A stretch of 63,627 nucleotides of DNA, filler included, from Reclinomonas americana ATCC 50394 (lineage: Eukaryota): the NCBI GenBank assembly GCA_048213135.1. It is 18 parts of 18 records of this genome, joined end to end, with 100 filler letters (N's around TTAATTAATTAA, not from the genome) between each part and the next. Parts side by side here need not be neighbours in the genome. Positions count along the whole stretch, not along the records: positions 1 to 10,421 come from AFZH01023617.1; positions 10,522 to 12,088 come from AFZH01023621.1; positions 12,189 to 14,835 come from AFZH01023622.1; positions 14,936 to 16,267 come from AFZH01023623.1; positions 16,368 to 18,829 come from AFZH01023624.1; positions 18,930 to 22,283 come from AFZH01023625.1; positions 22,384 to 29,327 come from AFZH01023626.1; positions 29,428 to 31,520 come from AFZH01023627.1; 10 more parts are not named here. The stretch is one strand, 5' to 3'. Position numbers and translations under genes: made by a program. The notes below the pieces were generated by a model. The model had not been told where the DNA came from. It saw nothing but the letters and a program-made list of their open reading frames with translations, and ran no database searches. Below, piece after piece: positions 192 through 56,341 of this stretch (position 1 is the first letter of the stretch; each line of letters begins with the position of its first letter).

Positions 192-3100
192 CCCTCCCAG
201 TCGACTTCACCACCTGGGTGCTCGTGACCCACGTGACTGCCGGTATCCACTCCGCCACGATTTCGGTGCTGCCCTCCGAAGAATGGTCACCGTCGTTCGG
301 AACATCGCCGCGTTTCGAGTTCCTTGACGCACACGCCTCCATGGAGACAATTATCACCTCCACTGTTTCGTCGTTTCTCCCGCAATGTCCTTCTATACAG
401 GTGCTGAATTCTGCAAGCACAGGCGACCATGGGTGGCGGTCCATGTGTGTGGGCCGACAACGTGGTAACACAGTGCATTGTGACACTTTCGACTCCCAAC
501 ACGATGTATGGCCTGAAGGTGCGCCTGGTGACCGGCGGTGCCGCCGAGAAGAAGATTGGTCCGCTGAGCCAGCGCATCGATGGTGTGATGAGTGTCCAAT
601 TCATCTCCAATATCGCGCGTGTGCACTCCTAACTCGTCGTGTGCAGTGCGAACGTTGATTGATGTCACAGTCACCGTGACGGTAATCTCCACCGACATGG
701 ATTCAGCTGTAGTGCGCTTCACCGCCAGCGCTCTGCCTCCCAACGACGACGATGTGACGTACTCGTTTGCGCTGTATTATTCAGGCTCGAATTTGCCATT
801 GGGCTACATCAACAATGAGGTTGGTCGCGTCTTCCAGAGAACAGCAAATGGTGGGGAGTAACGACTGACAGTCAATCGGTGCGCACAGGATTGTGTCTGG
901 GAGGACACGTCGCCAGTCACATGTGAGGTCGATTGGCTCGATTCCGGAACTCGCTACCGCTTCGTGGCGCGTGCGGCCAGCTCGGACAACAATTTCAGTC
1001 CTCCGTCGGCCGTGACGGAGATGACGACTTGTGCGTGATTGCAAACAGCCATGTGTGTGTGTGTGTGTGTCTGTCTGTCTGTCTGTCTGTCTGTCTGTCT
1101 GTCTGTCTGTCTGTCTGTCTGTGTGGAGGCAATGGATTCACCCGTTTGTGTGTCTGTCTGTCTGTCTGTCTGTCGGTCTGTCTGTCGGTCTGTCTGTCGG
1201 TCTGTCTGTCTGTCTGTCTGTCTGTCTGTCTGTCTGTCTGTCTGTCTGTCTGTCTGTCTGTCTGTCTGTCTGTCTGTCTGTCTGTCTGTCTGTCTGTCTG
1301 TCTGTCTGTCTGTCTGTCTGTCTGTGTGTGTGTGTGTGTTGTGAAGGCAGGAGTAGATTCACCCGTTTGCGTGTCGCAGCGCTGCAAGACTTCGATCTTT
1401 GGATCGTGGGCGGTTTCGGCGTGCAACTGCCCTCTGTTGGTGCCAATTTTACCGCCGTGCTGTTGGATCCTGAGAGCGGAAGTCCTGCCCTGCAGGTGAG
1501 AGAGGGAGAGGGAGAGGAAGAGGGAAAGGGGGAGGAGGAAGAGGGAAAAGGAGGGGGGCATGTGTATTTGTAGCGTGCACTCATCCCTTCTCTCTCCGTG
1601 CAGGGTCTGACTCCGGACTTTGTTTGGTCGTGTACCTTTGCTGGACTCGCTTGCCCTCTCGCGCTGGTTTCCACCACCTTCACCGCTTCACTGTACATTC
1701 CACCCGGCATGCTGCAAGAGGGAATGTTGCGTTTCTCTCTTGTTGTAGCTGTGTGTGACGGCGAGGTTGTGTGGTGCTGACCTCTGCCCCCCACCCCCCA
1801 GCTACGAGTTCACGTGCACGGCCACCCTCGGGTCGCGTTCTTCGTCTGACACAATTCGCGTGCCTGTCAGCGAGCATGGCTCTCTAATTGTGCACGTCAT
1901 TCGTGAAGTGTCCACCACCGACTTGCAAACTGCCCGTATCAATCCGAGCGAAGATTGGATGATGGAACCTGAGGTGGTGCTGGCTTCCCCGCTGGACGAC
2001 GTCACCTACCAGTGGAGCGCTCGCGGTGAGTCCTCTGATACACTGGGCACGGAAGGGAAGACGCTCACCAATGCGACACAGATTCGGCCAACAGGACCGT
2101 GGATCTGAGTGACACTGACAAGTTTGGCATGGTGGAATCGGCCGACAGTGACGCACCCAATGCCCTCATTGTGTACTCTGATTCTCTGGTACCTGGCGCA
2201 ACCTACTACTTCCACCTTCGATTGGATGCGCTGCTGGACGACGAGAATGTGTCAAGTTGAGTGTGCTCCGATGTAGTGCTCGTCGTCTCATGTTGCCATT
2301 CTCATCTGCGCTCTCTCGAACAGTGGAGGTCACGGTGACGGTGGTGGTCAACACGCCTCCGCGTGCCGGCCAGCTGACCATGTCACCTAGCGTCGGCAGC
2401 GAATACACCACCTTGTACACGTTCACGGCATTGAATTTCACGGACACGGATCTGCCTCTGACGTACTCGTACTACGTGCGCTTGCCGGGCACCTACTACC
2501 AGGTGATGCTGGCCTCGACTGTGTTGCGCTCGACGTACAGCACCTTGCTGCCGCCAGGAGATGCGGGAGATGGAACGATGGTGGTTGGCGTGCGTGTGCG
2601 CGACTCACTCGGTGCCGACACGTCGGTGGAGACCACTATCAAAGTGCGCCCCGACCCCAATCTAGACGTGGCTGCGCTCTTTGTCGCCAAGACCACCAAC
2701 TCATTCCTCACCACAACCGGTGCCATGTTGCGTTCTCTTGATGATTATTTCGATGATAGCATGTCTTTGGCTTCTGCTGACGAACTACTCGCTTTGTAGC
2801 ACAAACGATGAAGCGGGCTTGGCGTTTGGAAAGATGCAACTGTGGTTGCAGCTGATCTCTGCCGGCTCTAACGCGCAGACTGTGTTTGGCAGTGGTAAGT
2901 GTGTCTGTCACAAGCGATGCACCGTCTGTGTCACTTGAATTGACATACTTTTGTAATTTGTATTCCAGATCTCCAAGCGCAAGCGGCTCGAAACTTGCAG
3001 TTGATTGCCCGGGACACGAACACCATCGCCAATTCAATTACTTTGGTGAACAACGTTGATTTGCTGCTGGCTGCCATTCGGTCGACCAGTGTACTCGTGC

Positions 3101-24280: not shown

Positions 24281-27200
24281 ATGCTCACATTCATCATCCT
24301 TCTCATACTCCTGCATCTGTCCGTAGTCACTGGCGCAACAACATCGAGCACAATCGGTCTTCGTGTTGGTTTGTCCGGACAAGTGGTGGTGTTGACGGTG
24401 CCAGTGCACGTGGCCTCGTTCCCCTTTGCCACGCCGTCATTTACACTGTTCAAGAACGCCGACTGCCGCGGAAATGTGGCCACCATCATCAGCGGCTTCA
24501 ACAGCGCGTCTGATGGCACGACCTACACCATCACATGGACATTCGACACGACTGGAGAGCCAACACCAACGAAGCAGCAGTTGTGCCTGTCGTCCACTGA
24601 TCTGGCAGGCTTCTTTAGCCTGGCGTCTGTATCCATTTGTTGCGTTCCTGCTGGAGATATTTTGCTGTCAAGTTTACTTCCTTTTTCTTCTAACGAGGCG
24701 ACCATGCAGATCGTGTCAAGGGCACTTCGGCGCCTTCTGTAACGCAGGGCATCAAGTCGCAAACTGTTGTCATTTTGTCGGGTGGTGACTTCCCATTGCT
24801 GGCTACAAGTGCCGCCAATGGCAGTAATCCAGTCACACCTGGCGGCACGCCACTGGCATTCTTCCTCTCACTCGCCACCGATTGTTTGTCGATGGACTTG
24901 CGGGCGGCTGCCTTTGTGGTCACTGCGGTGTCGCCGACGCGTATTACGGCCACGGTGTCCACAATTTCTGCGGTCTCTCTCGCCTCGTGCACGCTGGATC
25001 CGCCTGGCACGTATCAAATTTGTGGTCGGTGTGTTACGGAGGGAAGGAGGGAGGGGTGGTGGGAAAGGGAGGAGGGGAATGGGAGGAACGACGGTGAAGA
25101 AAGAGAGACAATGGGAGAGTAGGCATTACCGTTGAGAGAGATATGGGCGAGGAGAAATGGGGAAAGAGAATAGGCGTGAGAGTGAATGGTGTGGGGCAAA
25201 AAGAACAAAGCAGTGGGTGCCGGGAGGAGAGATGAAGTAGAGGTAGGTGAGCCACGAAGTAGACCGTCTGTATGTGCGAGACACATGGGAGGATTTGAAT
25301 GAGAGGGCAGTTGCGAGAGGCAATAGGGCTGAGGAACAGTAGGCAAATGATTTAGAGGCTGCAGGTGAGCCTCGTATGTGCGAGAGACATGGGAGGATGT
25401 GAATGAGAGGGCGGCTGTGAGAGGCAAAAGGGCTGAGGAACAGTAGGAAAATGAGTGAGAGACTGCAAGGTGAGCCACGTATGTGCGAGAGATGAGCGAG
25501 GATGTGAATGAGAGAGTTGTTGCGAGAGGCAAGAGGACAAAGGAGCAATAGGAAAAATGAGTGAGAGGCTGCAGGTGAGCCACGTATGTGCGAGAGATAT
25601 GCGAGGATGTGAATGAGAGAGTTGTTGCGTGAGGCAAATGAGAGTGAGAGACTGCGTGCGCGAATGAGTGGGACTTTTTGTCATTCTCTTTCTTGTTCAA
25701 CGAGAAAAGTGGAAGGATAAGAGAGAATGCGATTGATCTATCGACGTTACACCACCGTCGACTATTCCACTGACAAAATATCTGCGCACAGCTTCCAAGA
25801 CGGCTCGTATGTGCCTCTCGGTGTGACATTGACCATCACGACCGTCACCGACCCCGATGTCGGATTCATTTCTCCGACTTCGTTGCCTCTCGGTGCCAAC
25901 TACGCTGGTGTTGCATTCACCATCACGCACGCTGTCGAATTGTACTCGTTTCAAGGTGGTCGACGCTGGGTCCGACTGCAATGGTCCGGCTTCTGGTGAG
26001 TGCTGAGAATGAGAAGATTCTGGGGTGGTGGTGGGTGGAGGAGATCTGTACTCACCATTTTTGTGCCTCTCTCTCTCACATCAGCGGCCCTTGCGCTGAC
26101 GGCCTTCCAGGACGGCGTCTTTTATGCGTCGTCATGCTTCTATGGATCTGTTGCTGGCGGCCGTGGACAGTTCAAGGTGCAGCTCACGAGCTCCAAGTCG
26201 GTGTATGCCACATCCTGTGTGGTAACCACACCAGGGGCGACGTACAAGGCGGTTTCGAACAGCGACATTCATGTTACCTCGGGTATGCTGGTGCAGACAT
26301 CGTCGGTGGTGGCCAACCAGGTGGGGACAATTGTTGCGTGGAAGATGGAAGAGAGGTGAAGAGGGAAGGCGGGTGAAGAGGGAAGGCGGTCAAGGGGGAA
26401 GAGGGAAGGGGGGTGAAGAGGGAAGAGAGGTAAAGAGGGAAGAGAGGTAAAGAGGGAATGGGGGTGAAGAGGGAAAAGGGTAAAGAGGGAAGGGAAGGGA
26501 GGTGAAGTGGGGGAAAAGAGGGGATGGGAAAAGAGGTCAAGGAAGAGGGAGTTAAGAGGGAATAGGAGGAGGGAAGGAGGTGAAGAGGGAAGGGGGTAAA
26601 GACGGAATGGGAGGAGGGAGTTTCGACAAGGAGAAGGGAACTGATAATTGGCGATGTGGAAGGATGTGAGACGAGGAAGAGACGTTAGGTGGGAAGGGGG
26701 AGGGAGGGAGGTGAGGCAAGGAGAAGAGAGTTCTTGATGGTATTTTGCGGGGAAGGGACAGTGGGTGGAAGTGTGTTGTTGAGAAAGCAAGGGAGAGAGA
26801 AACAGACTGAAGATATCTGTTGAGTTTGTGTGCATTGCAAGAGAGGGAAAGGCAGAAGGGAGAAAGGGAACAGAGTAGCTTTGGAAGTGTGTGGATGGGA
26901 ACGCGTTGGGGAGGGTAACGAAGAGAAATGTGTCTGTGGAGAATTTGTGGCGCAAGAGAGGACCGTCAGGCGATGAATGGGTTGTGGTATTGTGTAGATG
27001 TGGATGCAAACGATTGAGAGATAAGAGTGCCAAGAATGGAAAGGAGAAGGAGGGAAAGGTGACGGATTGGTTGTGGCAGTGAGTGTGTTGATGGAGATGC
27101 GAAGGAGAGAGAAACAGAGAGAAGTGTGTCGGTGGAGATTGGATGGCAAGAGAAGATCGTCAGAGGGGGGATGGAAGGGATGGGTTGTGGTCGACAGTGC

Positions 27201-29327
27201 GTGCATGAATACAAGGAAGAGAGAACAAGAGAGAAGTGAGTTCGAGGAGATTGCTTGTGGTATGCGAAGGAATGCAGAAGGGGGAGGGAAAGGATTTGTC
27301 GTGGTAGATAATGTGTGGATGGATGCAAGGGAGAGGAGAAAAATGTCTGTAGAAATGTGTGTGCGTGTAACAGAGAGTCGTCTGATGGGGAAAGAAAATA
27401 ATACGTTGTTAAAGTATGTGGCTGGATGGATGCAAGGGAGAGGAGAAGAACTGTCTGTGGAAATATATGCGTGCGACAGAGAGAGTCGACAGAGGAGGGA
27501 TGGAACGGATTGTTTGCGGTTGAGGGTGTGCACATGAGAATGCATTGTAGAGATAGTAAGAATGAGACGTGTGGCGTGGAGGCTGTTCGTGTGTGGTAAG
27601 GGAGGATCGTCAGAGGTGGGAAGGGAAATGATGCCTTGTGGCAGTGTGGATGAGAATGCATTGGAGAGATAGTAACAATGAGAAGTCTGCCATGGAGGCA
27701 GTGCGTGTGGCAAGGGAGAATCATCAGACGTGGGAAGGGAATTGATACTTTGTGGCAGTGTGGATGAGAATGCATTGGAGAGAAAAAGAAGTGTGCCGTG
27801 GAGCTGTGTGTGCGGCAAGTCAGAGGGGGAAAGAGATAGCATACGTTGTGGTAGTGTGTGGATTGGATGCCATCGAGAGGGTTACAAAGCGAGCATTGTT
27901 GATGGAGGTTGATTCTGTATGCGAGAGAAAGGTTGGAGGGAGAAGAAAGGAAGGACAGGTTGTCAATATTTGTGGTATTGTGTGACGACGGTAAGAAGGA
28001 GAGAGTGAGATGGGCGGAGCGCATCAGTGGAGATTGTTCTTGTCCTACGAGAGTGAGAGACCGACTGGGGGGAGGAAAGGATTAGTTGTTCCCATGTGTG
28101 ATGTGAATGCACCGCATGAGGGGACTGGTCGTTGAGGAGGGAAGTGGCTGAGACTTTTAGGAGTGTGTGCTTGGGGATTCAACAGATGAGTGACATAGAG
28201 GATTGAAGGTCAACTGCGCGTGCGAGGAGAGGAGGTGGGGGACAGAAAGGAAATGTTGAGGTGCTGTTGATGAGATAAACAACAACAAGTGAGTCAGTCA
28301 GAGAGTTTATGTGTGAAATAGAGAGGAGTGACGGAGGAGTGGGTTGGATATCATGGCAATCTCAATCACACGATGTCCACGGCTTGCATGCTGACGTTTG
28401 CTTCCTGGTTGTGCGACAGATGAACACTGGCACTGGCACTCGCTCCGTGGAGATTACACACCGCTTTGTGCAATCGTTCCAGGCGATTCCCACTGTGCTC
28501 TTTGGCATCTCCGCTCTCTCCAATACGATTGAGGGCGACACTGACATTCGCTGCGCGAGGCCGTCGGTCACCAATTTTATGCTGACGGTGCAGTGCTCGG
28601 CACTCGGCACTGCGCAGTTCGACTCGCTCATTACCAGTTTCGTGAGATCGACTTCGTTCTCGTGCACACTTGCATGAAACTCACGACCTACGTCGCAGAT
28701 TTCATTGCCATGTACGCGGACCCTGCCGCGACGTACACACACGACAACGAGTTGCCGCGTCAGAAAGCTGCCAATGAGTGGCTGAGCCTGGCCACCGACA
28801 AGAATTTCACCACGGTTTGTTGATGCAAGCAGACCTGTACATGGCCCCTGGACTCATTCATCGCAACCACGCGGCTGTGTGAGCAGGAAGTGGTGAATGC
28901 CCATGCGTTCGGGTTTGATGAGATTCCGTCGATTGCGCTGGCGCTGACGGGTGTGCGGTCCATTCGACTCGATCCGAGTGGCACGGCACGCAGCGATAAC
29001 TTTGAGGTGGCTGTCGGTGAGGCGGCCGCTGCCACCTCGCAGGTGTTGATGACGGTGCGCGGCGATAGTCGCGTGCAGGCGTTGGAGCTGCGTTCCATGC
29101 TGGTGGGATCGCGGCTGGTGCCGCGTGACAATTCCAGTGGCTACGTGATGGTGTCGGGCGGTGAGTTTGACTGCGAAGATTTGCCGGCAGTTGTGCACGA
29201 TTACTGACATGGATCACCGACGTGTTGCACAGAGAGCACGCTGGTGGGCAACACGCCGGTGGTGGTCACCCTCATCAGCCGTCAGTCAACCCTCGGGTTG
29301 AAACAGACTGATTTCCACACCGCCGCA
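24281..29327 (+). CDS. Secreted H-type-lectin-like multidomain protein, paralog of 10639-14465; 3' truncated
   Basis: Signal peptide MLTFIILLILLHLSVVTGA. CTLDPPGTYQICG matches CLVAPAGVYHLCG of the paralog. HRFVQSFQAIPTVLFGISAL...GDTDIRCARPSVTN matches GDTSVLCGEPAVTN. FGFDEIPSIALALTGVR...SDNF matches YPFATVPTLAVALTGVR...SDNF. Confidence 0.7.
25247..25656 (+). repeat. Intronic tandem repeat, about 105-bp unit, about 4 copies
   Basis: Units start GTGAGCC at 25247, 25365, 25470 and 25575 and share TATGTGCGAGA...GGAT(G/T)TGAATGAGAG...GAGGCAA. Confidence 0.9.
27534..27835 (+). repeat. Intronic tandem repeat, about 115-bp unit, about 2.5 copies
   Basis: ATGAGAATGCATTG recurs at 27534, 27650 and 27764 with similar downstream sequence. 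Confidence 0.8.
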
Positions 29328-36511: not shown

Positions 36512-36538
36512 GGCCGCGGCGCCGGAGGCTTCCGAAGG

Positions 36539-37796: not shown

Positions 37797-37896
37797 NNNN
37801 NNNNNNNNNNNNNNNNNNNNNNNNNNNNNNNNNNNNNNNNTTAATTAATTAANNNNNNNNNNNNNNNNNNNNNNNNNNNNNNNNNNNNNNNNNNNN

Positions 37897-38800: not shown

Positions 38801-38814
38801 GGGGGCGATCCCTA

Positions 38815-38904
38815 CGTCATGCTCGGGCCGGGCCCGAGCATCTCATGAGCGCTGGCGGTCGCCCGCTTCGGCCTGAGATGGCCGGGTCAGCCCCGGCCAT
38901 GACG
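38815..38904. repeat. Inverted pair of CGTC-tagged REP palindromes between oppA and oppB
   Basis: CGTCATGCTCGGGCCGGGCCCGAGCATCTC and an inverted CGTCATGGCCGGGGCTGACCCGGCCATCTC. Confidence 0.85.
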
Positions 38905-38913
38905 CGCTTTCTG

Positions 38914-40545: not shown

Positions 40546-40717
40546 GAGCGCTCTCCGACGTTTCGCACGGGCCCCTTTCCCGCTCCTGAAGCGAAGTATG
40601 AGCCTATCGCGCGCCGCCCGCCAAGCGTGAAAAGCCGGTATCAACCGCTCAGCTTAAGTCACTGGCCTGCTTTCGAAAGCTGGCTCAGAAACGAGTTGAG
40701 CGGAGCCTCTCCCAAGG

Positions 40718-41302: not shown

Positions 41303-41402
41303 NNNNNNNNNNNNNNNNNNNNNNNNNNNNNNNNNNNNNNNNNNNNTTAATTAATTAANNNNNNNNNNNNNNNNNNNNNNNNNNNNNNNNNNNNNNNNNN
41401 NN

Positions 41403-41610
41403 CGTCGACGCTGGCGAGGTCGTAGGGGTTCTGCGGCGCGATCAGCGGCGCGGCGATGGCGAGCAGCACGATCAGGATGAAGAGAGCGAGCCCGAACAGC
41501 GCCAGCCGGTCCTCGATGAAGGAGCGGACGAAGCGCCGGAACGGCGTCTCCTCCTTGACGGGGGCAACTGGCGGCGTCGCCGCGGCGGAGGGCAAAGCGG
41601 CGTCGCTCAT
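41403..41610 (-). CDS. Peptide ABC permease (DppC type), N-terminal fragment
   Basis: ETPFRRFVRSFIEDRLALFGL...APLIAPQNPYDL, with a 4-nt ATGA overlap with the upstream permease. Confidence 0.85.
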
Positions 41611-42584: not shown

Positions 42585-42613
42585 GGTCCGGTGCCTTCCG
42601 GATCTGAGTGCGG

Positions 42614-42715
42614 GACGCCATCCCGACCGGCACAGCCGGCGGGATGGCGTCTTCACTTTCTAACAATGAAAGAGTGTCGCGCGGTCCGGACCGGGCTTCA
42701 AGCCGGTCCGGACCG
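42614..42715. terminator. Two intercistronic stem-loops (42614-42651, 42682-42715) downstream of the binding-protein gene; stabiliser or attenuator
   Basis: GACGCCATCCCG...CGGGATGGCGTC and CGGTCCGGACCGG...CCGGTCCGGACCG inverted repeats. No clear U-tract. Confidence 0.55.
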
Positions 42716-42731
42716 GATCGACGCAAGCCGG

Positions 42732-44333
42732 TTATTCCTTACGGATGCCGGTCGCGAGCGTGTACTCGTCGGTGCGGGCCTGCACCTTGACGCCCTTGCG
42801 CGAGGCCCAGGTGTTCAGCTGGTAATGCGTCGGGATCAAGCCGACATCGTTCATGCTGATCTCCATCGCCTCGGCCAGAGCGGCGTCGCGCTTGGCGTCG
42901 TCGACGGTGCGCAGCGCCTCGTCCAGCTTGGCATCGAAGGCCGGGTTGGAGTAGCGGCCGCGATTGGTCGCGCCCATGCCCTTCTTCGGGTCGAAGGTGG
43001 CGAGCAGCGCCTTCAGCGAGTCCGAGGATTCACCGGTGCCGGCGCCCCAGCCGACCAGGATGAACGAGAACTCGGGCACATTGCCCTGGCCGCCCTGCGA
43101 GGCGCGGGTGAAGAAGTTCGCCGACGGCAGCGTCTCGACCTCGGTCTCGATCCCCAAGCGCGAGAACATCTGCGCGACAGCCTCGATGATCTTGGTGTCG
43201 TTGAGATAGCGGTTGATCGGCCCGTGCAGCTTCATCTTGAAGCCGTTGGGATAGCCGGCCTCGGCCAGCAGCTTCTTGGCCCCGTTGAGGTCGAAGGCGA
43301 CCGGCTTCAGCTTCTTGGAGGTGCCGAAGAAGCCATCGGGCAGGAGCTGGCCGGCGGGGATCGCCTCCTTCTCCATGATGCGCTCGACGATGCCCGGGCG
43401 GTTGATCGCCATCGACAGCGCCTGGCGGACCTTGAGGTTGCGCAGCGGGTTCTTGATTTCCGAGCCGTCCTTGCCCTTGATGAAGGGCGAGACCTCGCGG
43501 AAGTGATCCATGTGGAAATAGATCACCCGGTTCGAGACCGTGCTCGAGACGTTGAGCTTGGCATCGCCCTTGAGGCGGGCGACATCCGAGGTCGGCACGT
43601 TCTCGATCACGTCGAGATCGCCGGCGAGCAGCGCCGCGACGCGCGTCGGCGCCGAGGTGATCATCCGGAACGTGACCTTCGACCAGGGCTCCTTGCCGCC
43701 CCAGTAGTTCTCGTTCGGGGTCAGCACGACGCGGTCGCCCGCGACATATTCGGCCTGCTTGTAGGGGCCGGTGCCACCGGCGGTGCACTTGCCGAGGTTG
43801 AAGTCCTCGGTGGTGGTGTCCTTGCACTTGGCCGGGATGATGCCGAAGGTCGAAAGGTCGGTGGGGACCAGCGGAGCCGGCTCCGTGGTCTTGATCCGGA
43901 TCGTGTGGTCGTCGACCTTGCTGAATTCCTTGCCGCGGACATAGGCGTTGAAGCTCGACGGGCTCTTCGGCACGTTCGGAGCGCGCTGCATGGTGGCGAG
44001 AACGTCGTCCGCAGTGAACGGCGAGCCGTCATGGAACGTGACGTTCTTGCGCAGCTTGAATTCCCAGGTGGTGTCGTCGATCGCCTTCCAGCTCTCGGCG
44101 AGCGCCGGCTTCAGCGCCTGCTTCTCGTCCTGCCCGACCAGCGGCTCGTAGATGTGGCGGGCCATCAGGTTGTTGGGGGTGAGGTTATGGTAGTGCGGAT
44201 CCATCGCGCTGAGCTCGGCCGACAGGCCGATCTTGAGTTCCTGGGCCGATGCCAGGCCGGCGATGGTCATGACCGGAGCCGCCAGAATGGCGAGCTTGAG
44301 AGCTTTCAGCCCGTTGGCGCTGAACGTTTTCAT
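42732..44333 (-). CDS. Peptide ABC transporter substrate-binding protein (family 5)
   Basis: Signal peptide, PALAESW, TFHDGSPFTADDV, GTGPYK and AKKLLAEAGYPNG. Confidence 0.93.
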   Translation of the reverse strand: MKTFSANGLKALKLAILAAPVMTIAGLASAQELKIGLSAELSAMDPHYHNLTPNNLMARHIYEPLVGQDEKQALKPALAESWKAIDDTTWEFKLRKNVTFHDGSPFTADDVLATMQRAPNVPKSPSSFNAYVRGKEFSKVDDHTIRIKTTEPAPLVPTDLSTFGIIPAKCKDTTTEDFNLGKCTAGGTGPYKQAEYVAGDRVVLTPNENYWGGKEPWSKVTFRMITSAPTRVAALLAGDLDVIENVPTSDVARLKGDAKLNVSSTVSNRVIYFHMDHFREVSPFIKGKDGSEIKNPLRNLKVRQALSMAINRPGIVERIMEKEAIPAGQLLPDGFFGTSKKLKPVAFDLNGAKKLLAEAGYPNGFKMKLHGPINRYLNDTKIIEAVAQMFSRLGIETEVETLPSANFFTRASQGGQGNVPEFSFILVGWGAGTGESSDSLKALLATFDPKKGMGATNRGRYSNPAFDAKLDEALRTVDDAKRDAALAEAMEISMNDVGLIPTHYQLNTWASRKGVKVQARTDEYTLATGIRKE

Positions 44334-44537
44334 TCCGAACCTCCCGATGGCTTCTGGGCGCCATCTTTAACAACTGAGCCGCGGGTGGCGAGTCGCCGGA
44401 TTGGCCGGTCTGCCCCTGATCTCGCCCGCCCGGGCTTGTAGAACGATTTCATATACCTGTAAATTATACGGCACGCGCTATGATATAACTTCGCTGCATA
44501 GGTAGATGCGGGGCGCGGATAGGGGCCGGACGCGATC

Positions 44538-44702
44538 ATGGTGAACACGGCGAGCGCCGAGCGGCGACCACCGAGCCTGCGCGAGCTCGAAGTGCTGCAA
44601 GCTATGATCGCGACCCGCAAGACCGTGGCAGCAGCACAGATGCTCGGCATTTCGCAGCCGGCAGTGTCGCGGGCGCTCGCGGCGCTGGAGGCTCATGTCG
44701 GC
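44538..44702 (+). CDS. LysR-family regulator, N-terminal HTH, truncated
   Basis: AAAQMLGISQPAVSRALAALE, divergent from the ABC operon. Confidence 0.9.
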
Positions 44703-44980: not shown

Positions 44981-45904
44981 CGAGCACAATGACCGAGGTG
45001 GTGCCGTCGCCGACTTCCTCATCCTGCGCGCGGCTGAGCTCAATCATGCTCTTGGCGGCCGGGTGCTGCACGTCAATCTCACGCAGAATGGCGTTGCCGT
45101 CGTTGGTCAGCACAATGCCACCCATGGCATCGAGCACCATCTTGAGCATGGCCGACGGTCTGCGGAAACACCCCACACACACACAAGAAAGTATGAGGAA
45201 ATGCTCAGACACAAGTTGCGTGGAGGTGGTGGGGGGAGGGGGAGTAACGCACCCGAGCACAGTGCGAACCACATCGGCAATCACCTGTAAACAAGAATGT
45301 GCGCGTGTGAGTTGTCTCGTTGTCGAGGCATGCAGATGACCGACCAAAAACACACACACAACACCCCTCCCTCTTTGCCACACACGCACGAGAGAAGAGG
45401 AGGTCAATGAGAGAAAGAGCAGTGAGCATGGTGCGCTGCGTGTGATGCGCGTGAGAGAGAGTGAGCGCGTGGGAAAGAGTGAGTGGCAAAGTTAAACAGC
45501 CTTGTGTACAACTGACTTGTCAACATGCGCGCTTGGGAGATGCATGCAACGCCAACACGACTGACAGTGTCCACCAGTGCACACAACACAGCTCGCTCAT
45601 GCACGAGCAAAGGACAAGAGAGAGAGACACATACAAAGAGAGAGCGCGCGCGCGCAAAGACATGTCTCTGCCTCACACTCCTCGATGCCTACCTTTGCGG
45701 CGGTGATGTTGCCGAGCTGCGCCTTGCGACCCTTCTCGCGTTTTGTGCTCGTGTCTGCACGCACACACAGAGAGAAGGAGCGCGCGTGTGTGAGTGAGCA
45801 TGGCCGCACTTGTCATCACACAAACGCAAACACACGCGCACGCGTGCACGACGCAAAACGGGCGAGACGCAACTGAGCACCAACATTTGCTGACCGCCCA
45901 TCAT
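44981..45904 (-). CDS. CCT3: T-complex protein 1 subunit gamma, 5' exons (3' truncated)
   Basis: Spliced: [70 protein letters not shown]...[15 protein letters not shown]. Confidence 0.93.
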
Positions 45905-46111: not shown

Positions 46112-47479
46112 ATGGCCGTGGACATCACACCACAGACCAAGTCCTCGTCGTCGGCGGCATCGGGATCGTCCTCCGGTGCTCGCGCCAGTGCATCCTCTGC
46201 GTCAGCATCATCGCGTCAGCGATGCCTGGTGACGGGCGGCTGCGGCTTCCTCGGCTCCTACATCGTGGACAAGCTGGTGGAGGAGGGCCACTCGGTGCGC
46301 GTCTTTGATCGCATCAAGCCCGAGGGCGCTGGCGAGGGCGGAGCGTCGTCGTCAGCTGGTCCGTCGGCGGGCGCATCCGCAGCCGCGGGGGCGGTGGCGG
46401 CGGGACACGGCGACGTTGAGTATGTGCAGGGTGACTTGACGCTGCTGGAGGAGGTGGCGGACGCGGTGGCCGGCTGCTCGGTGGTCTTCCATGTGGCCTC
46501 GATGACGGAGACGTGGGGCAAGCGACAGCGATTCTTTGATGTGCGTTTTTTTTGCAAGCAAAACACGCGACTCGTTTTCCAACACTGACTTGGTTTATGC
46601 AGGTGAATGTGCTGGGCACGGAGAACGTGTTGAAGGCGTGCGTGCGACACAATGTGCGCGCACTGGTGTACACGTCGACGCCGAGTGTGGTGATTGACGG
46701 CCGCAACATTGTCAATGGCGACGAGTCGCTGCCGATCGCCACCAAGTTCCTCGACTACTACACGGAGACCAAGGCCGAGGCGGAGACAATGGTGCTGCAC
46801 GCGAATGGCAGCAACGAGGGGCGACTGTTGACGTGCGCGATCCGGCCGCATGCGATGTTTGGGCCGCGCGACAACCACTTCTTCCCGCAGCTCATTCGCA
46901 AGGCGCGCGAGGGCAAGACCAAGTTCGCCATCGGCTCCGGCACCAACTCGGTCGACTTTACGTACGTCGGCAACGCCGCCGACGCGCATGTGCTGGCCAT
47001 GAAGTCGCTGCTGTCGGAGGCAAAGGCGGCGGCAGGTTGCGTGCTGCCTCGCACCTTGTCTTTTCCTTGCGTGTCGCTCACACCGTGCATGCTTTGCAGG
47101 TCAAGCCTACTTTATCACCAACGGCGAGCCGACGCTGTTCTGGGAGTTTATGCGTCGCGTGCTGACGCGTCTCGGGTACGCGGCCCCGTCGCGTCGCATT
47201 CCGTACTACGTGGCGTACGCGCTGGCGTACACGCTCGAGTCGGTGCACGCGTGCATTGGTGGCTGGCTGTGGGACTTCCGACCACCGCTGACGCGCTACC
47301 TCGTGGCCAACATGTGCACCGACCACTGGTTCTCGATCGAGAAGGCGCGCAAGGATCTCGGCTACGATCCACGCGTGTCGCTGGAGGAGGCACTGGAGAT
47401 GACGGTGCAGTACTATCGCGAAATGGGACTCGGCAACGAAGAGGAGCTGGCGCACGACGATCAGCCTCCCGATGAGTAA
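46112..47479 (+). CDS. NSDHL: Sterol-4-alpha-carboxylate 3-dehydrogenase (3-beta-HSD family), 2 introns; start may be 46082
   Basis: VTGGCGFLG, FFD|VNVLGTENV, VYTSTPSV, YTETK, IRPHAMFGP, DFTYVGN, G|QAYFITNGEP and KARKDLGYDP. Confidence 0.88.
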
Positions 47480-47557: not shown

Positions 47558-48024
47558 TCACACCGGTGGCATTGTGTAATTCATGTACACGGACATGATG
47601 GAGACGGCGACGGAGAGAATCAGCTGCTTGGTGTCGAGCTCCGAGTACTTTGTCGTCAAGCACCCCGACACGGTGCAAAAGAACGCGCCCCACGCAGCAA
47701 TCTTCCACTGCACGCACACAGTGAGACATGTGCCTCTCACGCGAACGCACGCACAAGAAACGCAACTCGCAGCATCAACGACACCGCACCCAACACCAGC
47801 GCCAGCAGCATGGTCAACCCGCCGCCAACCTCCTCCACTGACAGCATCGCCTGCGTGTACGGCACACCAGTGACCACTCGACGCGACGACGAAGACGATC
47901 CTCCTGCAACAGCAGACGATGACGACGCGCGCTTGGCCACGCGCGTCACCGGCACCGCCTTCACAGCCTCGTCCTCAGACCCCGACGAGGACGAGTCGGC
48001 AACAGGAGACTGCGGGTCGCTCAT
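47558..48024 (-). CDS. WDR83OS: PAT complex subunit Asterix (UPF0139/WDR83OS), 1 intron 47708-47766
   Basis: SLMLR|WKIAAWGAFFCTVSGCLTTKYSELDTKQLILSVAVSIMSVYMNY matches the Asterix pattern LMLxxKxxAW...DTKQ. Confidence 0.78.
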
Positions 48025-48355: not shown

Positions 48356-49405
48356 TGCCCGTGTTGTTGCCGTCGGAGATAGAGGTGATTTGGAGCCGCA
48401 TGTTCAAGGTGTACTCGCACTTTTACAACAGCCAGTTTGACGTGCTGACGGTGCGTTCGTCGTTGTCGCTGGTTGGGATGGGTGGGCGCACTCAACTGAA
48501 TCTTCTGCGCAGAGGCTACGCATGCACGATCCGTGGAATGCGGCGTTTTTCGCCTTGGTGCAAGACAATTTCAAGTACGATGTGGTGTCGCAGACGCCCG
48601 AGGCCTTGCGCAGTGTTATTAGCTCGCTGGTCAGCGGACGCCCTGTCACCATTCCCGTGCGACGTCTCTCGTATCGCCCGCAACCGCCGCCCATGGTGGC
48701 TGCGGCCTCTGCTGCCTCTGCTTCCTCCCCGTCGCCGCCGTCGTCTCCGGCCCAAGGTGATCTCACTGCGCGCTGTTCTGGTAATGTGTGTTTGTTGTGC
48801 CTCACTCCGCCCTCCCCCTAAGTGTACGGTGAGATGCTGGACGGCATGGACGGCGACAGTGAGATTGGCTCGCCGGGCGAGCGCATGCATGTGCACACGT
48901 CGGAGGTGGAGCTCGTGCCGACCACGCCACCGGTGCGTGGCGACTGCCTGTCCCTTCTCCGCCTCATCGTCCTCACTCGCCGTGTGCACACAGAATGTGG
49001 TGTTGAAGAAGGGCCTGCTGCAAAAGAGGGGCCACATGGTGAAGAACTGGAAGTCGCGTGCGTTTGTGTTGTACTGCGATCGCCTCGAGTACTGGACCGA
49101 CAGTTGCGTCCTCTCGCCTGTGTTGTGCCAGCACGAATGCATACTCACTCGGGCAAACACAAACAGGTGACTCGTCGGCCACTCTCAAGGGCGTGATCCA
49201 CCTCTCCGATGTTGACGAGATGACGGATCGCGGCACCGAAGGCTCCTTCCACTACTTCAAGATCATGGGGCGCGAGGGCCTGGAGAAGAAGAACAAGAAC
49301 TTTTTAGTGCGCACCACCTCCATTGGCGTCAAGCAGGACTGGATGCAGGCCATTGATCAGGCCATGGAGCAGTTCCGCAACGCGCTCCTCATCTCCGTCG
49401 ACTAA
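48356..49405 (+). CDS. Mob1/phocein-like domain fused to a C-terminal PH domain, 5' partial
   Basis: IWSRMFKVYSHFYNSQFDVLT|RLRMHDPWNAAF resembles Mob1 ILKRLFRVYAHIYHQHF. PH domain: KKGLLQKRGHMVKNWKSRAFVL...LKGVIHL...QDWMQAI. Confidence 0.72.
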
Positions 49406-49622: not shown

Positions 49623-49693
49623 GGGCCCATGGTTTAACGGTAGAACATCGGTCTACGGAACCGGAGACCAGGGTTCGACTCCCTGTGGGCCCT
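49623..49693 (+). tRNA. tRNA-Arg(ACG)
   Basis: Cloverleaf: acceptor GGGCCCA/TGGGCCC, D-arm GTTT/GAAC, anticodon arm TCGGT-CTACGGA-ACCGG, T-arm CAGGG-TTCGACT-CCCTG. No encoded CCA. Confidence 0.93.
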
Positions 49694-49698
49694 CCTGA

Positions 49699-49783: not shown

Positions 49784-51572
49784 ATGAGCTCAGGAAGCGC
49801 GTCGGGCTACGACAGATACATCTCTATCGTTGCGTCTGCGCGCAGCAGCTGAACTCGCCTTGCGCGTGTCTGTCTGTGTGTGTGTTTGCTTGTTGCGCGC
49901 CAAATCGACCTTTTGTCATGCGTGTTGTCTCTCTGCCCCCCCACACACTCTCCTCTCCTCATGTGCGATGGGCGCTGAACTGACACGCGCGTGTGCAGTT
50001 CTCACCAGAAGGCAAGCTGTACCAAGTCGGTGAGTGGACATTGCACCCTTGTGCTCTCCTCTCCACGCGCGCGCGCGCGCACGTGTTATGTTCATCATCC
50101 CTCACACTCCTTGTCTGCACTCTCCCACTCCACAGAGTACAGCTTCAAGGCCGTCAAGGTGTGCTCACTTGCACTCTGGTGAATGGTGATTGATCAATCC
50201 TCTCACACACTCTCTTGCTGTCTCTCTCACAGTCATGCGGTCTCACCTCGGTCGGCACGAGGGGCGACGAGACAGTGTGTGTGGCCATTCAGAAGAAAGT
50301 GCCTGTTGCGTGCAGATGCATTCACTTGGGTCATCCAATTTGAGATGATGAACGCCTGACTCTTCTTCTTCATTCATCATTAGGACAAGTTGCTGGACGC
50401 TGGCACTGTGACTAGCCTCTACTCCATCACCCCGACCATTGGCTGCGTCATGACGGGTCTGCCGGCTGATGCGCGTGCGGTGGTCGCTCGTGCGCGCCAG
50501 GAGGCTGCTGACTTTGAGTACCGGGTATGTGTGGCAAGAGAGAAAGGAGTGGAAGGCAGCAATCTGTTTCTTTGTTTCACCCTGGTGTCTTGTGCGTCAG
50601 CTCCGGTTCCTCTCCGATTCCTTATCATGCTCTTGGCATCGCTGCTATTCTTTTCCTCTCGCTCTCTCTCCCCTTCCAATCTTCCTTTTGCCCTCTCCCA
50701 TGCCTCCCCCTTCTGTTCACTCCTCCTCCGTTCTCTTCCTGTCTTCCTGTTTTCTTGTCCTCCTTCTGCATTCCGCTGCCTATCCTCTCCTCTTCTCTCG
50801 TCTCTTCTCCCTCTCTCTCTCTCACACACACGCACACACTCCTCTCCCTTCTCTCCTCTCTCTCTCCTCTCTCTCTCTCCTCTCCTCTCCTCTCCTCTCC
50901 TCTCCTCTCCCTTTCTCATCTTCGCTCTTCTCCTCTCCTCTCCTCTCCCTTACTCATCCACGCTCTTCTCCTTCAATCCCTCAGTTCGGCTACGACATCC
51001 CCGTGTCGTCACTGGCACGCCGCATGGCCGACCAGGCACAAGTTCGCACGCAGTACGCCGGCCAGCGCCCGTTCGCTGTCTGTTGCGTGCCATCACCATT
51101 TTCTGTCTCCGTGTCCCCCACTGTCGAGGAACACTGTTTTTCTCATTCACGCGAACAGCCATGATGCTCTCCGCCATTGACGAGGAGGACGGTCCGCAAC
51201 TGTTCAAGGTGGATCCCGCGGGCTACTACGTGGGCTACCGGGCAACATGCGCCGGTGTGAAGGAGCAGGAGGGCACCAACTTCCTGGAGAAGAAGTTCCG
51301 CCACAATCCCAGCCTGAATTTCGACGAGACCGTGCAGGTGTGTGTGTGCATGCTGTCAAACGTGCACACTTATGTGTTGACGCTGACGCATTCGTTGTGT
51401 ATGTGTGTGCGTGTGGCAGATGGCGTTGCACACGCTGCAGTCGGTGATTGGCCAAGAGTTCAAGCCGACGGACGTGGAGGTCGGTGTCGTGCACGCGAAT
51501 GACCCCGAGTTCCGCATCCTGCCGCAAGAAGAGGTGGAGTTCCACCTGACGGCCCTCGCCGAGCGCGACTAA
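49784..51572 (+). CDS. PSMA6: Proteasome subunit alpha type-6 (alpha1), 7 introns
   Basis: Spliced: [26 protein letters not shown]|...QKKVP|DKLLD...[20 protein letters not shown]...[12 protein letters not shown]...HLTALAERD*. Confidence 0.96.
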
Positions 51573-51716: not shown

Positions 51717-53538
51717 TCATCTTTCTTTCTTGCCAATCTCGTCCACTGGCGATAATGGCGGCTCTTGCGAGCGCAGCACGAGTGCGAAGAAGCCGATATT
51801 GGCCGCGAGGAAGCACACCGACGCCAGCCACACGAACAGGTGCACAGAGGCGGCCTTGAGCTCGAGAAAGTAGGCCGGCAGCAGCCAGGACAACTAGAAA
51901 TGAACCAGTCAATGACTGAAACTCGATAGTATCTGCTGCTGCTGCGTCCACCAACGCACCTGCACGCCCATGAAGAGTGCAAATGCCGACCAAGCGCACT
52001 GAACTGAACGCACTCGCGGCCACACCAGAGGGAACAGCGCAAAGAACCAGACAAAGTACTGCAACCAAAGAGATGAGTTGACTGTGTCACCTGTCGAAAG
52101 CAAGGAATGACACACCTGTGCCGTACACACACTGTTGAGGGCGACAAAGAGCACGGTTTGCGAGAAGAGGGCAGCCGGCAGACTGACGTGAGCGAGCACA
52201 AAGCCGACGGCTCCGCACGCAATCAGCTGGCCATCGTCATGATCACCATGAGACCCAAGTTCCATTCAAGTGTTTGCAAGAGTCCCCTCACCTGCGGCAG
52301 AAACCCGAGCGTCGGCACGAATACCTCCGGAGCAGCCTTTAGCAAGTACTGTGGCAGGAACGCCAGCGAGAAGTTGTGCTTGAAATCCACACGGCGCAGG
52401 TGATACAACAGGGCGTGCTCCAGGAAGTCGTCTTTGCAGCTGCGGCAAAGAGGCATGAGAAGAACGGAAGCGATGCCAACGTTAAACACAAGGCGACGCA
52501 CACAGCGTAGCACAGCGCAAAGAGCACAATGTAGGTGGCCAGTGCTGTGACGGCAAAGCGCCACACGGCACCGCACGTGGCCGTCCTCCACAGCGATCGC
52601 CACCATTGCACCGGCGCCACAACCTGTGTAAGATGCTCAGTCACGACGCAACCAAACGAGGGACGCGAACATAGCTGAGGACCTTGTCACCACGAACGGC
52701 CATGGCAAGCGACACAGCCAGGGCGGGTGCGTAGACCACGGGATACAGCTTGAGGTGCACGGCCGTGCCAAAGCTGTGAGCACAGTTCAGTGCGCTGAAT
52801 GGTGAGATCGCACGAGCCATGAACGGCCACGCAACGCCACAGCCGCCAGCACTTCCCGTCGCCGCTCCAAAAAGAACAGCGTGAGCAGCACGAACAGCGC
52901 AATGATAATATCCGAGTTGCCGCGCGTGCTGACGTTGATGATGACTGCGAGGAGCTCAGCACAAGCAGCAGCTTCTGGGCATCGACAAACGGAAGATGCA
53001 CGCAACTCGGATGCCACGCCAACAGCGCCACCGCCTGCCACGCCTTCTCGGCCGGCACCAGCTGCGCCACCAGCACACCACACAGCAGATTCGCCACACT
53101 CAACAGCAGCTTGGCCGAGCCGGCAAACCACAGCACGTTGGGCAAGTACAGCAGTGCGCTGCAAAGCAGAGACAGAGAGCAATCGCGATACCAAGTGAGA
53201 AAGCGATCGGCGATCGCCCACGAGCGATCAGTGATCGCCGAGGATTCAAGAAGAGCGATCTGATCGCCAACGCAACAAGAGTGGACTGTATCGATAGGTA
53301 GCACGAGCGTACGGGCACTGGCCCTGCGCCACAAAGCTCGCTCCATCCGTGAACACCGCATGATCAATGTCGGTGTACTTGACAGCGTCTGCATAACATG
53401 TGTGAGTGAGAGAGAGCGATCGCCCGAGCACTGAAAGCGGGTTCCATCGACGCAACAGTGCTGATCGTGCCAGTGTGAGTACGCAAACACAACGCCGTGG
53501 ATGAGTGCGCTGAGGCACACCACGCGTCGCGTGTTCAT
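51717..53538 (-). CDS. PIGM: GPI mannosyltransferase 1 (PIG-M/Gpi14), multi-intron
   Basis: [56 protein letters not shown] and AYFLEL. Confidence 0.92.
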
Positions 53539-53606: not shown

Positions 53607-55474
53607 ATGGCGTGGCCTGGTGGACAAGGACAGCCTCCTGCACAGCCCGGGCAGCCTCCTGCTGTTGCGTACACTCACTGCCTGCCTCCTTACATGCTCA
53701 GTCTGCTCATTACGCTCTTGGGGGCAGTTCGCGCAAGACGCGCAGGCCTTGGTCTGTGCATGCGCTTTGCTGCGCTGCTTGTTGTCTTGCACACTCACCT
53801 CTTCCTCTTCCACTTTCTCAGGCCTACTACTATGCCATGTACGCTCCGCCACCACCAGTTGCAGCGCCACACTTTGCACAGCCTGCTCCTCATCACATGC
53901 CACACTATGGGAGTCGCGGTGGTCGTGGTGGAGGGCGAGGTCGTGGACGAGGAGGAGGAGGAGGAGAGGTGAGGCGACAGGCACCACGAATGCCACCTGC
54001 AGAGGGCGGGGACGCAGAGGAAGGCGATTTCTACTGTGATGCATGCGAGAGGGGCTTTGTGGCGGAGGAGCAGCTGACTCGGCATCGTGCGACGCACGTC
54101 AAGTGTGATGTGGCCGACTGTGCGTTTGAGGCGTCGGCGAAGGTGGTGAAGGAGCACTTTATGAAGGCGCACTTGGTGCGGAGGGGAGGCGGGCCGGCGA
54201 TTGGTGGTGGGCCTGCCACGATGGAGTCGGCCGAGGAGCTTGCCAAGTACTTGGAGGAGCGACGACGGCGCTTCCCCACTCGCGAGAATGTGGAGAAGAA
54301 GGCGGCGGAGTTGGAGGTGCAGCGGCAGCGTGGTGAGCTGGTGGAGGCGGATCGGCGGGGCGGAAGAGGCGGTCGTGGAGGCCGAGGACGGGGTGCGGTG
54401 CGTGGCAGAAGTACACGCGGCGGCTTTGGTGGTGCCTCCTCGGCGTCGGCCGCAGCTCCTGACGCGTCTGCTGTCGACACGACGACGACGACCACCACCA
54501 CCACCACCACAACTGATGGCGCTCCAGTCATTGCGTCCGAGGACGACGTGGCGGCTGTGGTGGCTGCATGTTGCGTCTGCATTCTCTGCCGTGTCTGTTG
54601 CGCTGTGCTGAGTTTGTGTTTGCGTCTGCGTTTCAGTGGCTGCCGATGTGGGAGCAGATGCAGAGCAGCTGCTGGCGACAGCACTGGCGGCCGCTCCCGC
54701 ACTGCTCAAGAGTGTTGGGGGAGACGAAGTAGAGGATGAAGAGGACGAGGAGGAGGGTGCTGCCGGGTCGCGCAAGAGAGCACACAATGGCGACGACGGC
54801 GACGAAGATGACGAAGAGGATGAAGAGGACGATGTGGATGATAGTTGCGTGTGCTTGTTGCCGCAGCCGTATACTGACGCGGAGCCTCACCTGTCTGTAC
54901 GCTGCAGATGATGCACCGCTGGAGGAGTCGACGAGAGGTCCACCAGAGGAGGCAGTGGCCATGACAGTGGACGAGGGCGCAGCTGCTGGTACGATTCGAG
55001 TGACTTGCGCGCTCGTCGTTGACTGTCACTGATTGTGCGATTCCGAGCAGGTGACGCCGAGTCGTCTGCCGCCGCTGTGGAAGCGTCGGCAGTGGCACCA
55101 CCGTCGCTCGACGAAGGGAGGAAACGCAGACCATGTCGCTACTTTGCACAGGGCCACTGCCGGGCAGGTGACAAGTGCCGCTTCGCGCACGTGCAGGGCG
55201 CCGAGCAGCCTGGACCCGTCAAGAGGCAGAAACGACAGGCCAAGACTGCAGCAGCGGCGGCAGCTGCTGCCAGTGCCGCACAGACCATCCGACGCGGACC
55301 CACCCTCCTGGAAAAGGTTTCGTTCCCGGTCCTCCCAGCCAGCTCATTCGGTGGTCTCTCACACGTGAAGCGCTGCTGCAGCTGTTGGCCCGCGAGATTC
55401 GCAACGAGCATAGCGCCTTGCTGCAATGCATAAGATACATTGTGCAACACAGCATGCTCCAGCCCTCCACGTAG
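53607..55474 (+). CDS. NUFIP1: NUFIP1/Rsa1-like snoRNP assembly factor with C2H2 and CCCH zinc fingers
   Basis: CDACERGF...HRATHVKC...H, ESAEELAKYLEERRRRFPT, CRYFAQGHCRAGDKCRFAH and PTLLEK|LLAREIRNEHSALLQCIRYIV. Confidence 0.88.
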
Positions 55475-55542: not shown

Positions 55543-56341
55543 ATGGGCAAGCGAAAGAGTCGCAAGAAGCCTGTGGCAGTCAAGAAGATCGCCAAGATCG
55601 GCGCCATCTTCGACTGCCCCGAGTGCAACCACAACCAGTGTGTGGAGTGCAACATGTTGCGCAAGTCTCTCCTTTCTCTCTCCACATGGACGCACAGCTC
55701 ACTGCACACGCAAACGCACACACAGTGATCGCAAGTTGAACATGGCTGACATTAGCTGCCGCGTGTGCAAGGCCTACTTTTCGCACACCAAGCTGAATGG
55801 TGTGTGCATTGAGATTGACTGACACGCAAAAGAGAGACAGGAGCGCGCGCTCATTATCTTTGCAGACTTGGAGGAGCCCATTGACGTGTACTATGCATGG
55901 CGCGACAGTCTTGCGGCGGCCACCGACGGCTCAAGTGCACCCGAGGGAGTGACACTGGCTGGCGCAGGCGGGCGCGATCTGCGTGCTGGCGATGTGTCGG
56001 AGGAGGACGAGTCAGAGGAGGAGGATGCACGCGAGGATGATGGTGGGAGCGTGCATGTGTGTGTCGTGTGCGTGCAACAACTCCTCACTCTCTCTGTTGG
56101 GGTGGTGCAGGTCGTGCAGCGCATCGGCAGCCGGCGAAGGCCAACAAGTATCGCGCGAAACGGGAACAATCGGGGAGCAAGGCCTCGGCGGCTGCAGCAG
56201 CGGCCGCGGCCGCCTCATCGGGCGAGGTAATGCCGCTGTGGCTTCGAGTGTGCTATTGCGTGTTTGTTGACATGCGTGTTCGTGCAGGAGGACGAAGACG
56301 AGGAGGAGGAGGAGGATTACGAGGACGAGAGCGACGACTGA
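55543..56341 (+). CDS. ELOF1: Transcription elongation factor Elf1 with acidic tail
   Basis: MGKRKSRKK...FDCPECNH...CRVC...LEEPIDVYYAW, followed by D/E-rich exons. Confidence 0.92.

Follow-up and report, generated by a model that had tools for sequence, protein, structure and literature searches.

In a 63,627-nucleotide stretch of DNA from Reclinomonas americana ATCC 50394 (the window) and in further parts of the same genome, we identified an abundant class of introns whose 5' splice site (donor) signal is displaced by one base after the GT, together with a second U1 small nuclear RNA (snRNA) gene whose 5' arm matches these donors. All our evidence is at the DNA level, introns and snRNAs alike being predicted from sequence, and within that frame the shifted donor class is confirmed as real, abundant and constrained. 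Our overall model, which we consider probable, is that two U1 small nuclear ribonucleoproteins (snRNPs) would share out the major (U2-type) introns. The accepted picture for eukaryotes is of two classes of intron, each served by a separate 5' recognition RNA; if a further abundant class indeed had a U1 dedicated to it, this would show how new splicing specificity can arise by snRNA duplication.

The assembly (G000) comprises 108 Mb in 16,441 contigs, and frequently both alleles of a locus are present, with 91-98% identity. The window consists of contigs joined by N linkers, most of them intron-rich and eukaryotic with a GC content of ∼56-60%; two bacterial-looking portions (29428-44702 and 62171-63627), bearing what we take to be ABC transporter, gamma-glutamyltransferase-like and LysR-like genes, were excluded from every count. 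To avoid circularity, introns were predicted with a self-trained gene finder that is blind to the donor signal, requiring only GT or GC, treating positions +3 to +10 as plain intron composition and leaving the exon end unmodelled. On nine stretches (∼0.67 Mb of the genome) it predicted 1635 introns, from which the 905 GT introns with a posterior of at least 0.9 were taken as the confident set. We defined the shifted class as donors of the form GTT-N-H-G (H, not G) and the ordinary class as donors with G at +5 (507 in the blind set). A second finder, trained on the donors, was also used and is partly circular.

The shifted class accounts for 200 of the 905 confident introns (22%) and, with the donor-trained finder, for 461 of 1665 (28%), with members on nine of nine stretches; these fractions are approximate because the blind finder misplaces some junctions in the Prp8 gene. 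A first-pass annotation of the window had proposed that such introns are a mainstream class, and the counts bear this out. It had also anticipated that G at +6 would be enriched among GTT donors beyond background and that splitting donors by the +3 base would reveal a distinct class with G at +6 and depleted G at -1, and both hold for the blind-called donors. G occupies +6 in 215 of 354 GTT donors as compared to 77 of 551 other GT donors (P=5e-49), the background being 177/1093 for GTT inside introns and 3968/15998 for GTT overall. The commonest donor heptamer of the whole blind set is GTTGCGT (n=106), and the shifted class has G at +4 in 76%, C at +5 in 88% (175/200) and T at +7 in 80%, and the mix of bases at +7 mirrors that at +6 of ordinary donors. 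The last exon base is A in 93, T in 56, C in 33 and G in 18 of the 200 shifted donors, as opposed to G in 436 of 507 ordinary donors; counted from the exon side, shifted donors follow 182 of 336 non-G ends and 18 of 569 G ends. An unsupervised mixture model recovered a TGCGT component with a weight of 0.21-0.24 at K=2, 3 and 4. The phase of shifted introns is flat (171/143/147), as expected because G at -1 is scarce in this class. Both classes occur inside the same genes, and shifted introns showed no clustering by gene (odds 1.15, P=0.33). We rejected an origin as introners, since only 1 of 461 shifted introns had a similar partner, versus 9 of 461 ordinary introns. Separately, a few GC-AG introns appear shifted-like (A/GCTGCGT, T/GCTTCGT; the slash marks the splice site) among 22 GC donors with a posterior above 0.8.

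Within the window, 32 of 91 confident introns belong to the shifted class, one of which, at 3485, is a probable miscall. All 23 donor motifs listed by the first-pass annotation are present at their coordinates and strands, although site 55656 reads GTTGCGC, and the base before the intron is G in just two of them (47036 and 55317), as it had stated. It had further described these sites as frame-consistent introns. The blind finder called 12 of the 23 (posterior 0.76-1.0) and the trained finder 21; for the two sites missed by both, 8866 and 45873, the frames are open once the exons are joined by coordinates.

Protein conservation provided a test independent of the finders. We built homologue profiles from 71 PSMA6 and 54 Prp8 sequences and compared each annotated junction with every in-frame GT/GC-AG or AT-AC rival within 15 nucleotides. 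All 16 annotated junctions in the two genes scored best against 1 to 9 candidates each, including seven of seven GTTGCG junctions. In the PSMA6-type gene each annotated junction beat all in-frame alternatives and three of seven introns are shifted, so the earlier claim that conservation fixes these junctions stands. Two of the three presumably lie at positions where the human gene also has introns; if so, old introns would have been converted. In Prp8, the amino acid words spanning the four shifted joins occur in 47-53 of 54 homologues, and micro-exons of 13 and 22 bases (L050:1131-1143 and 1224-1245), in a near-invariant part of the protein, each precede a GTTGCG donor.

Comparison of alleles indicates constraint on the displaced signal. 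In the loci analysed, we found a second copy, in some cases a tandem paralogue, for 139 introns; for contig C46 no second allele was found at the single place tried. Among 31 shifted introns there were no differences in 155 positions from +3 to +7, versus 260 in 4311 positions inside introns (P=6.5e-5), and differences appear just beyond, at +8 and +9 (7/62). Ordinary donors differed at 28 of 455 positions from +3 to +7, none of them at +5. No switch between the shifted and the ordinary form was observed among the 139 introns, a single GTTGCAT/GTTGCGT pair having been placed in the category 'other'.

The first-pass annotation had inferred either shifted pairing of U1 and U6 or variant copies of these snRNAs. 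For U1, the genome sequence directly supports variant copies, since one of its U1 genes has an arm that fits the shifted donors; for U6, no variant was found in the searches described below. An Rfam U1 search of the genome returned three matches, namely one ordinary U1 (arm AUACUUACCUG; G000:C343, L003:1501-1673, minus strand) and two identical allelic copies of a variant (arm AUACGUAACUU; G000:C429 and allele C479). Both arms are 11 nucleotides long and differ at positions 5, 8 and 11. The variant arm is complementary to AA/GUUACGUAU, and GUUGCGU pairs with it at seven of seven bases, one of them a wobble. The variant is a full-length match to the model, with helix H, stem-loops, Sm site and stem-loop 4. 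Only 103 of 173 columns are identical in the two types, so the duplication is an old one, and yet all 13 pairs checked are kept, five having changed on both sides; for helix H together with the upper part of stem 1 the figures are nine of nine kept and five double-changed, while the top of stem-loop 4 is unchanged. The variant has the loops GAUCAAGCAG and AAUGCAC, which we assume to have their usual roles with U1-70K and U1A, and its stem-loop 4 is common to the ordinary U1. As a separate observation, loop 1 of the ordinary U1 reads GUUC, compared to GAUC in the Rfam consensus and the variant, and its stem 2 is longer.

In our model the variant U1 would be expressed and form an snRNP. A CCCACAA element lies at -65 of the gene and likewise at -61 to -71 of the U2 (U2a), U5, U11, U6 and U6atac genes; it was not found before the U12 gene, and the region upstream of the ordinary U1 is an assembly gap. 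The element recalls one described for Dictyostelium (PMC7919456). A motif downstream of the variant has similar counterparts at the ordinary U1 and at U12, and the two variant alleles are identical at 154 of 154 positions versus 960 of 1016 columns upstream. The contig that carries the variant holds both donor classes, so the gene comes from the same organism. Two contigs each, probably alleles, matched U1-70K and LUC7; U1-C was not found in the genome, probably because introns split its gene. No third U1 type emerged from three pattern searches, in which we inspected four of six matches, one extra exact match and the matched text only, respectively. A pattern scan of metagenomes for the variant U1 in relatives yielded 74 loci; each had at most one of three U1 features, and we judged all of them to be chance matches.

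Donor pairing argues for a division of labour between the two U1 types, which we regard as very likely on these predictions. The ordinary U1 would read G/GT-G-(C, A or T)-G-T donors, and the variant would read GTTGCGT preceded by A, T or C, mostly after exons whose last base is not G. In the latter duplex, arm residues C9, A8, A7, U6 (as a wobble), G5, C4 and A3 would face +1G, +2U, +3U, +4G, +5C, +6G and +7U, with U10 facing an A at -1. In effect the variant would take up the '+1 shifted' register known from other sites and remove its mismatches: when ordinary U1 is placed in that register its C8 faces +2U and its U5 faces +5, and A8 and G5 of the variant make both pairs Watson-Crick on GUUGCGU. 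With parameters for unmodified RNA, blind-called shifted donors have a mean duplex energy of -8.0 kcal/mol when paired to the variant, compared to -1.6 kcal/mol for the ordinary U1; the corresponding means of ordinary donors are -3.7 and -6.2 kcal/mol. The variant is computed to pair better than the ordinary U1 at 94% of the 200 shifted sites, and the position that discriminates it from a shifted ordinary U1 is C in 175 of 200 shifted versus 207 of 507 matching ordinary donors. The match points to a recognition route set aside for an entire class of introns. A plausible origin would be that shifted sites were at first tolerated, that U1 was then duplicated and its mismatches repaired, and that introns with non-G exon ends were captured afterwards.

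After U1, the intron would pass to the ordinary U2 and U5 and, in all likelihood, to the ordinary U6 as well. The predicted 3' ends of shifted introns are U2-type: the branch motif CT(A, C or G)A(C or T) is present in 342 of 461 shifted and 763 of 1037 ordinary introns, the branch distance (median 20 nucleotides), acceptor and length match those of the ordinary class, and CCTTRAC occurs in 1/461 and 3/1037, respectively. Loop 1 of U5 is canonical and U4 was found. U2 comes in two types that have clearly diverged from each other (114 and 85 bits; L072, at G000:C14:162841-163039, and L073/L074) and have the same branch box, and no link of these to the donor classes was found.

The U6 step is less straightforward. 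As a rule the cut lies five bases from the pair between +5G and U6; thousands of sites here would break this rule or use another U6. The usual pairing of +5G with ACAGA is lost where +5 is C, as in 175 of 200 shifted donors, and the mean number of Watson-Crick pairs with U6 is 0.74 in the usual and 2.54 in the +1 register, the ordinary donors having 2.73 in the usual register. The U6 genes found are three identical copies with an ACAGAGA box. One Rfam search and three catalytic-core pattern searches revealed no variant U6, although with limited candidates in a fragmented assembly one could be missed; two extra core matches were rejected as not U6-like. Since no variant was found, a shifted register with ordinary U6 seems the likelier course, and we favour it with some reserve: the ACAGA box would pair with +6G and +7U instead of +5G and +6U, the extra intron base being absorbed near the catalytic core.

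A number of observations weigh against this reading. On the Prp8 check the blind finder placed only two of four shifted junctions correctly and made one wrong call at a posterior of 0.90, and its 198 'other' donors contain errors. Both U1 matches score below the cut-off of 69.5 bits for Rfam RF00003, the variant at 64.0 bits (E 6e-14) and the ordinary at 63.7. A would be the best base at +4 opposite residue U6 of the variant arm, yet blind-called shifted donors have G in 76% and A in 4%; G is also favoured opposite the same U1 base in ordinary donors. The T found at -1 in 56 of 200 shifted donors is unpaired by U10, and A at -1 is not diagnostic of the variant because it is enriched among the non-G ends of both classes. 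Ordinary +5G donors still follow 71 of 336 non-G exon ends. The small set of snRNA candidates from this assembly could hide a variant U6, and a 2024 paper describes the register of U6 as far less flexible than that of U1, reporting only a -1 case (PMC11162779).

Ordinary U1 might itself read the class in the +1 register, the variant being redundant or otherwise employed. The class consensus resembles ordinary GTGCGT plus one T, ordinary U1 makes on average 6.3 pairs when shifted by +1 and 4.3 when unshifted, and human assays, in the part of PMC11732430 available, found splicing to be poorly predicted by U1 pairing. Nevertheless, the duplex energy of ordinary U1 with shifted donors is just -1.6 kcal/mol, changes 5 and 8 of the variant arm repair the two intron-side mismatches of that register, +5C is near fixed (175/200), and both its structure and the comparison of its alleles show the variant gene to be conserved. 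We consider this alternative unlikely.

The remaining alternatives involve the minor spliceosome or a further U6. We identified U11 (51.2 bits, L075), U6atac (37.8 bits; G000:C392, L064) and a sub-threshold U12 candidate (26.5 bits, L070) with branch box, Sm site and the shared flank; U4atac was not found in this fragmented, gapped assembly. The pattern RTATCCT...CCTTRAC has 156 matches genome-wide versus 14 in a control, 91 of the 100 listed starting with AT, and the arm of U11 is AAAAAGG. The predicted minor spliceosome thus serves a separate set of ATATCCTT introns, distinct from the shifted class. For a jakobid, if this organism is one, a minor spliceosome would be noteworthy, since no minor introns were reported in the Discoba surveyed, according to the text available of PMC10639083.

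A hybrid can be envisaged in which the variant U1 and U2 hand shifted introns to U6atac, in the normal catalytic register. This would avoid an active-site shift, since the CC-type box of U6atac pairs with +5C and +6G: its C14, G15 and A16 face +6, +5 and +4, giving a mean of 2.57 Watson-Crick pairs, equal to shifted U6, and its GGUC-AGC could pair with the GCU/GAUC segments of U2 as well as U6 does. To our knowledge no natural U2/U6atac pairing exists, which counts against the hybrid. The U12 found here retains a 5' end that fits this U6atac, which the canonical ATATCCTT introns need. Where C13 of U6atac favours G, at +7, G is instead depleted (14/408 versus 328/3153 inside introns), and where A16 favours T, at +4, T reaches just 10-15%. 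On the side of the hybrid, U6atac here has, within that GGUC-AGC, a C where 10 of 10 CC-type rows shown in supplement 3 of PMC2396436 have U, and the CC variant is called hard to explain in the text available of that paper. CC-type U6atac is reported there from cnidarians, Acanthamoeba, Physarum, moss and oomycetes, and we dropped the idea that the box is an adaptation to the shifted class because the variant is old and widespread. We regard as improbable the hybrid and, with it, a third spliceosome beside the major and minor ones in which re-programmed U1, ordinary U2 and U6atac would process a quarter of introns.

An undetected variant U6, lost from the assembly or too diverged, could partner the variant U1. 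Non-G exon ends normally lean most on U6 pairing (PMC11732430, in part), and U4atac and U1-C are likewise missing from this fragmented, gapped assembly; however, the one Rfam and three core pattern searches yielded three identical U6 copies and a U6atac pair only, and we think this very unlikely. That the class consists of minor (U12-type) introns which were transformed, comparable to those that expanded in Physarum, is scarcely credible: GTTTCGT resembles GTATCCT, the phase is flat and a minor spliceosome is present, but branch sites are of the ordinary type, with CCTTRAC in 1/461, the GTTGCGT donors do not fit RTATCC, the U11 arm AAAAAGG fits the separate RTATCCT set, the variant snRNA is U1-like in its loops and stem-loop 4, and the missing -1 G explains the flat phase.

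Our favoured reading, two U1 types each with its own donor class, has partial precedents, which we consulted in the text available of each source. In the human +1 register the consensus lies one base into the intron and C9 of U1 faces +1G, and non-canonical U1 registers together account for ∼1.5% of sites, with one ordinary U1 (PMC4856993, PMC11162779). The class described here is likewise displaced one base after GT, but unlike the human register it comprises 22-28% of introns and is matched by a second U1 gene. In its working it would resemble the human register, except that it has an snRNA to itself, and it is not U12-type. Co-evolved arms are known from Entamoeba, whose U1 arm AACAAAC matches GUUUGUU, and Mastigamoeba balamuthi, where ACGUAC matches GUACGU/GUGCGC (bioRxiv 10.1101/2022.06.08.495308), the Mastigamoeba change being the same U5-to-G as in our variant. 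In both, U1 changed to suit the genome's main donor with the register unchanged, whereas here both U1 types coexist, each with its class, and the cut is offset by one base with respect to the body of U1. Physarum polycephalum (same preprint) and the diplonemid S. specki have a standard U1 gene beside a modified one, and in S. specki both fit the ordinary logo about equally (PMC12621601); as in our genome, the two U1 genes differ in their 5' arms, and the available texts describe neither a separate donor class nor a register shift. A donor split by the last exon base is general with one U1 (PMC11732430), and there as here non-G sites carry a strong intron-side signal, but the U6-side class of that study retains +5G, while our non-G class uses +6G and its own U1. 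In a 2026 tunicate paper a divergent U1 was plausible, but that route was not taken there, in the part available (PMC13326754). Like the minor spliceosome, the present system has a second class with its own 5' recognition snRNA, a strict donor and no need of G at -1; unlike it, the branch is U2-type, the snRNA is U1-derived, about a quarter of introns are involved and true minor introns are separate.

We found no report of the shifted class or of a second U1 serving it in a literature whose subscription papers were sparsely covered. Co-evolved U1 arms and rare shifted donors are known; a second U1 matched to a shifted class appears to be new. In this lineage, roughly one intron in four will be annotated wrongly by gene finders that were trained on a single consensus.

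Table 1. Shifted introns of the window and the PSMA6-type gene. The slash marks the splice site; 'new' marks introns absent from the first-pass list; numbers are finder posteriors.
Feature	Donor	Position	Strand	Evidence
Intron	T/GTTTCGT	365..422	+	motif check; trained finder 0.99
Intron	T/GTTGCGT	1726..1801	+	motif check; trained finder
Intron	A/GTTGAGT	2256..2323	+	blind finder 0.99
Intron, new	T/GTTGCGT	2727..2799	+	trained finder
Intron	A/GTTGCGT	3102..3165	+	motif check; trained finder
Intron	T/GTTGCGT	6003..6076	+	blind finder 1.0
Probable long intron	A/GTTGAGT	8866..9562	+	missed by both finders; joined frame open
Intron	C/GTTGCGT	9970..10040	+	blind finder 0.94
Intron	T/GTTTCGT	18267..18334	+	blind finder 1.0
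Intron, new; fully Watson-Crick match to variant U1	T/GTTACGT	20476..20547	+	trained finder
Intron	A/GTTGAGT	20748..20815	+	blind finder 0.96
Intron, new	C/GTTTCGT	21498..21552	+	trained finder
Intron, new	T/GTTGCGT	21618..21679	+	trained finder
Intron, new	T/GTTGCGT	24639..24709	+	trained finder
Intron, new	A/GTTTCGT	28637..28698	+	trained finder
First intron of presumed CCT-gamma-like gene	A/GTTGCGT	45755..45873	-	frame open over four exons; missed by finders
Intron in 3-beta-HSD family gene	G/GTTGCGT	47036..47099	+	blind finder 1.0; Pfam PF01073
Intron	A/GTTGCGT	47708..47766	-	blind finder 0.93
Intron	A/GTTGCGT	49103..49166	+	blind finder 1.0
Proteasome alpha subunit (PSMA6-type) gene, 8 exons, 7 introns		49784..51572	+	homologue profile
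PSMA6 intron 1	C/GTTGCGT	49829..49998	+	best profile junction
PSMA6 intron 4	T/GTTGCGT	50305..50383	+	best profile junction
PSMA6 intron 6	T/GTTGCGT	51082..51158	+	best profile junction; blind finder 0.76
Intron, new	C/GTTGCGT	52774..52835	-	trained finder
Intron, new	A/GTTGCGT	52945..53006	-	trained finder
Intron	T/GTTGCGT	53159..53276	-	motif check; trained finder
Intron	T/GTTGCGT	53389..53456	-	motif check; trained finder
Intron	T/GTTGCGT	53664..53727	+	blind finder 0.99
Intron	T/GTTGCGT	54570..54636	+	blind finder 0.99
Intron	A/GTTGCGT	54844..54907	+	blind finder 0.97
Intron	G/GTTTCGT	55317..55381	+	motif check; trained finder
Intron in Elf1 zinc-ribbon gene	T/GTTGCGC	55656..55725	+	trained finder; domain match
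Intron, new	A/GTTGCGT	58489..58546	+	trained finder
Intron, new	C/GTTTCGT	61108..61175	+	trained finder

The likeness of the snRNA upstream element to that of Dictyostelium had hinted at Amoebozoa, but a quick tree of PSMA6 gave no well-supported placement, the gene not grouping with dictyostelids, and the best identity of a PSMA6 exon among the sequences listed was 74%. A tRNA-Arg(ACG) gene lies at 49623-49695 on the plus strand, 88 bases upstream of the PSMA6 start codon. Prp8 (L050:1-650, G000:C729; allele C4240) contains an intein-like insert, its start off the contig, which ends in THN before CPKELGG and shows a weak match to the homing endonuclease family PF05204 (E 4e-4, just under the cut-off).

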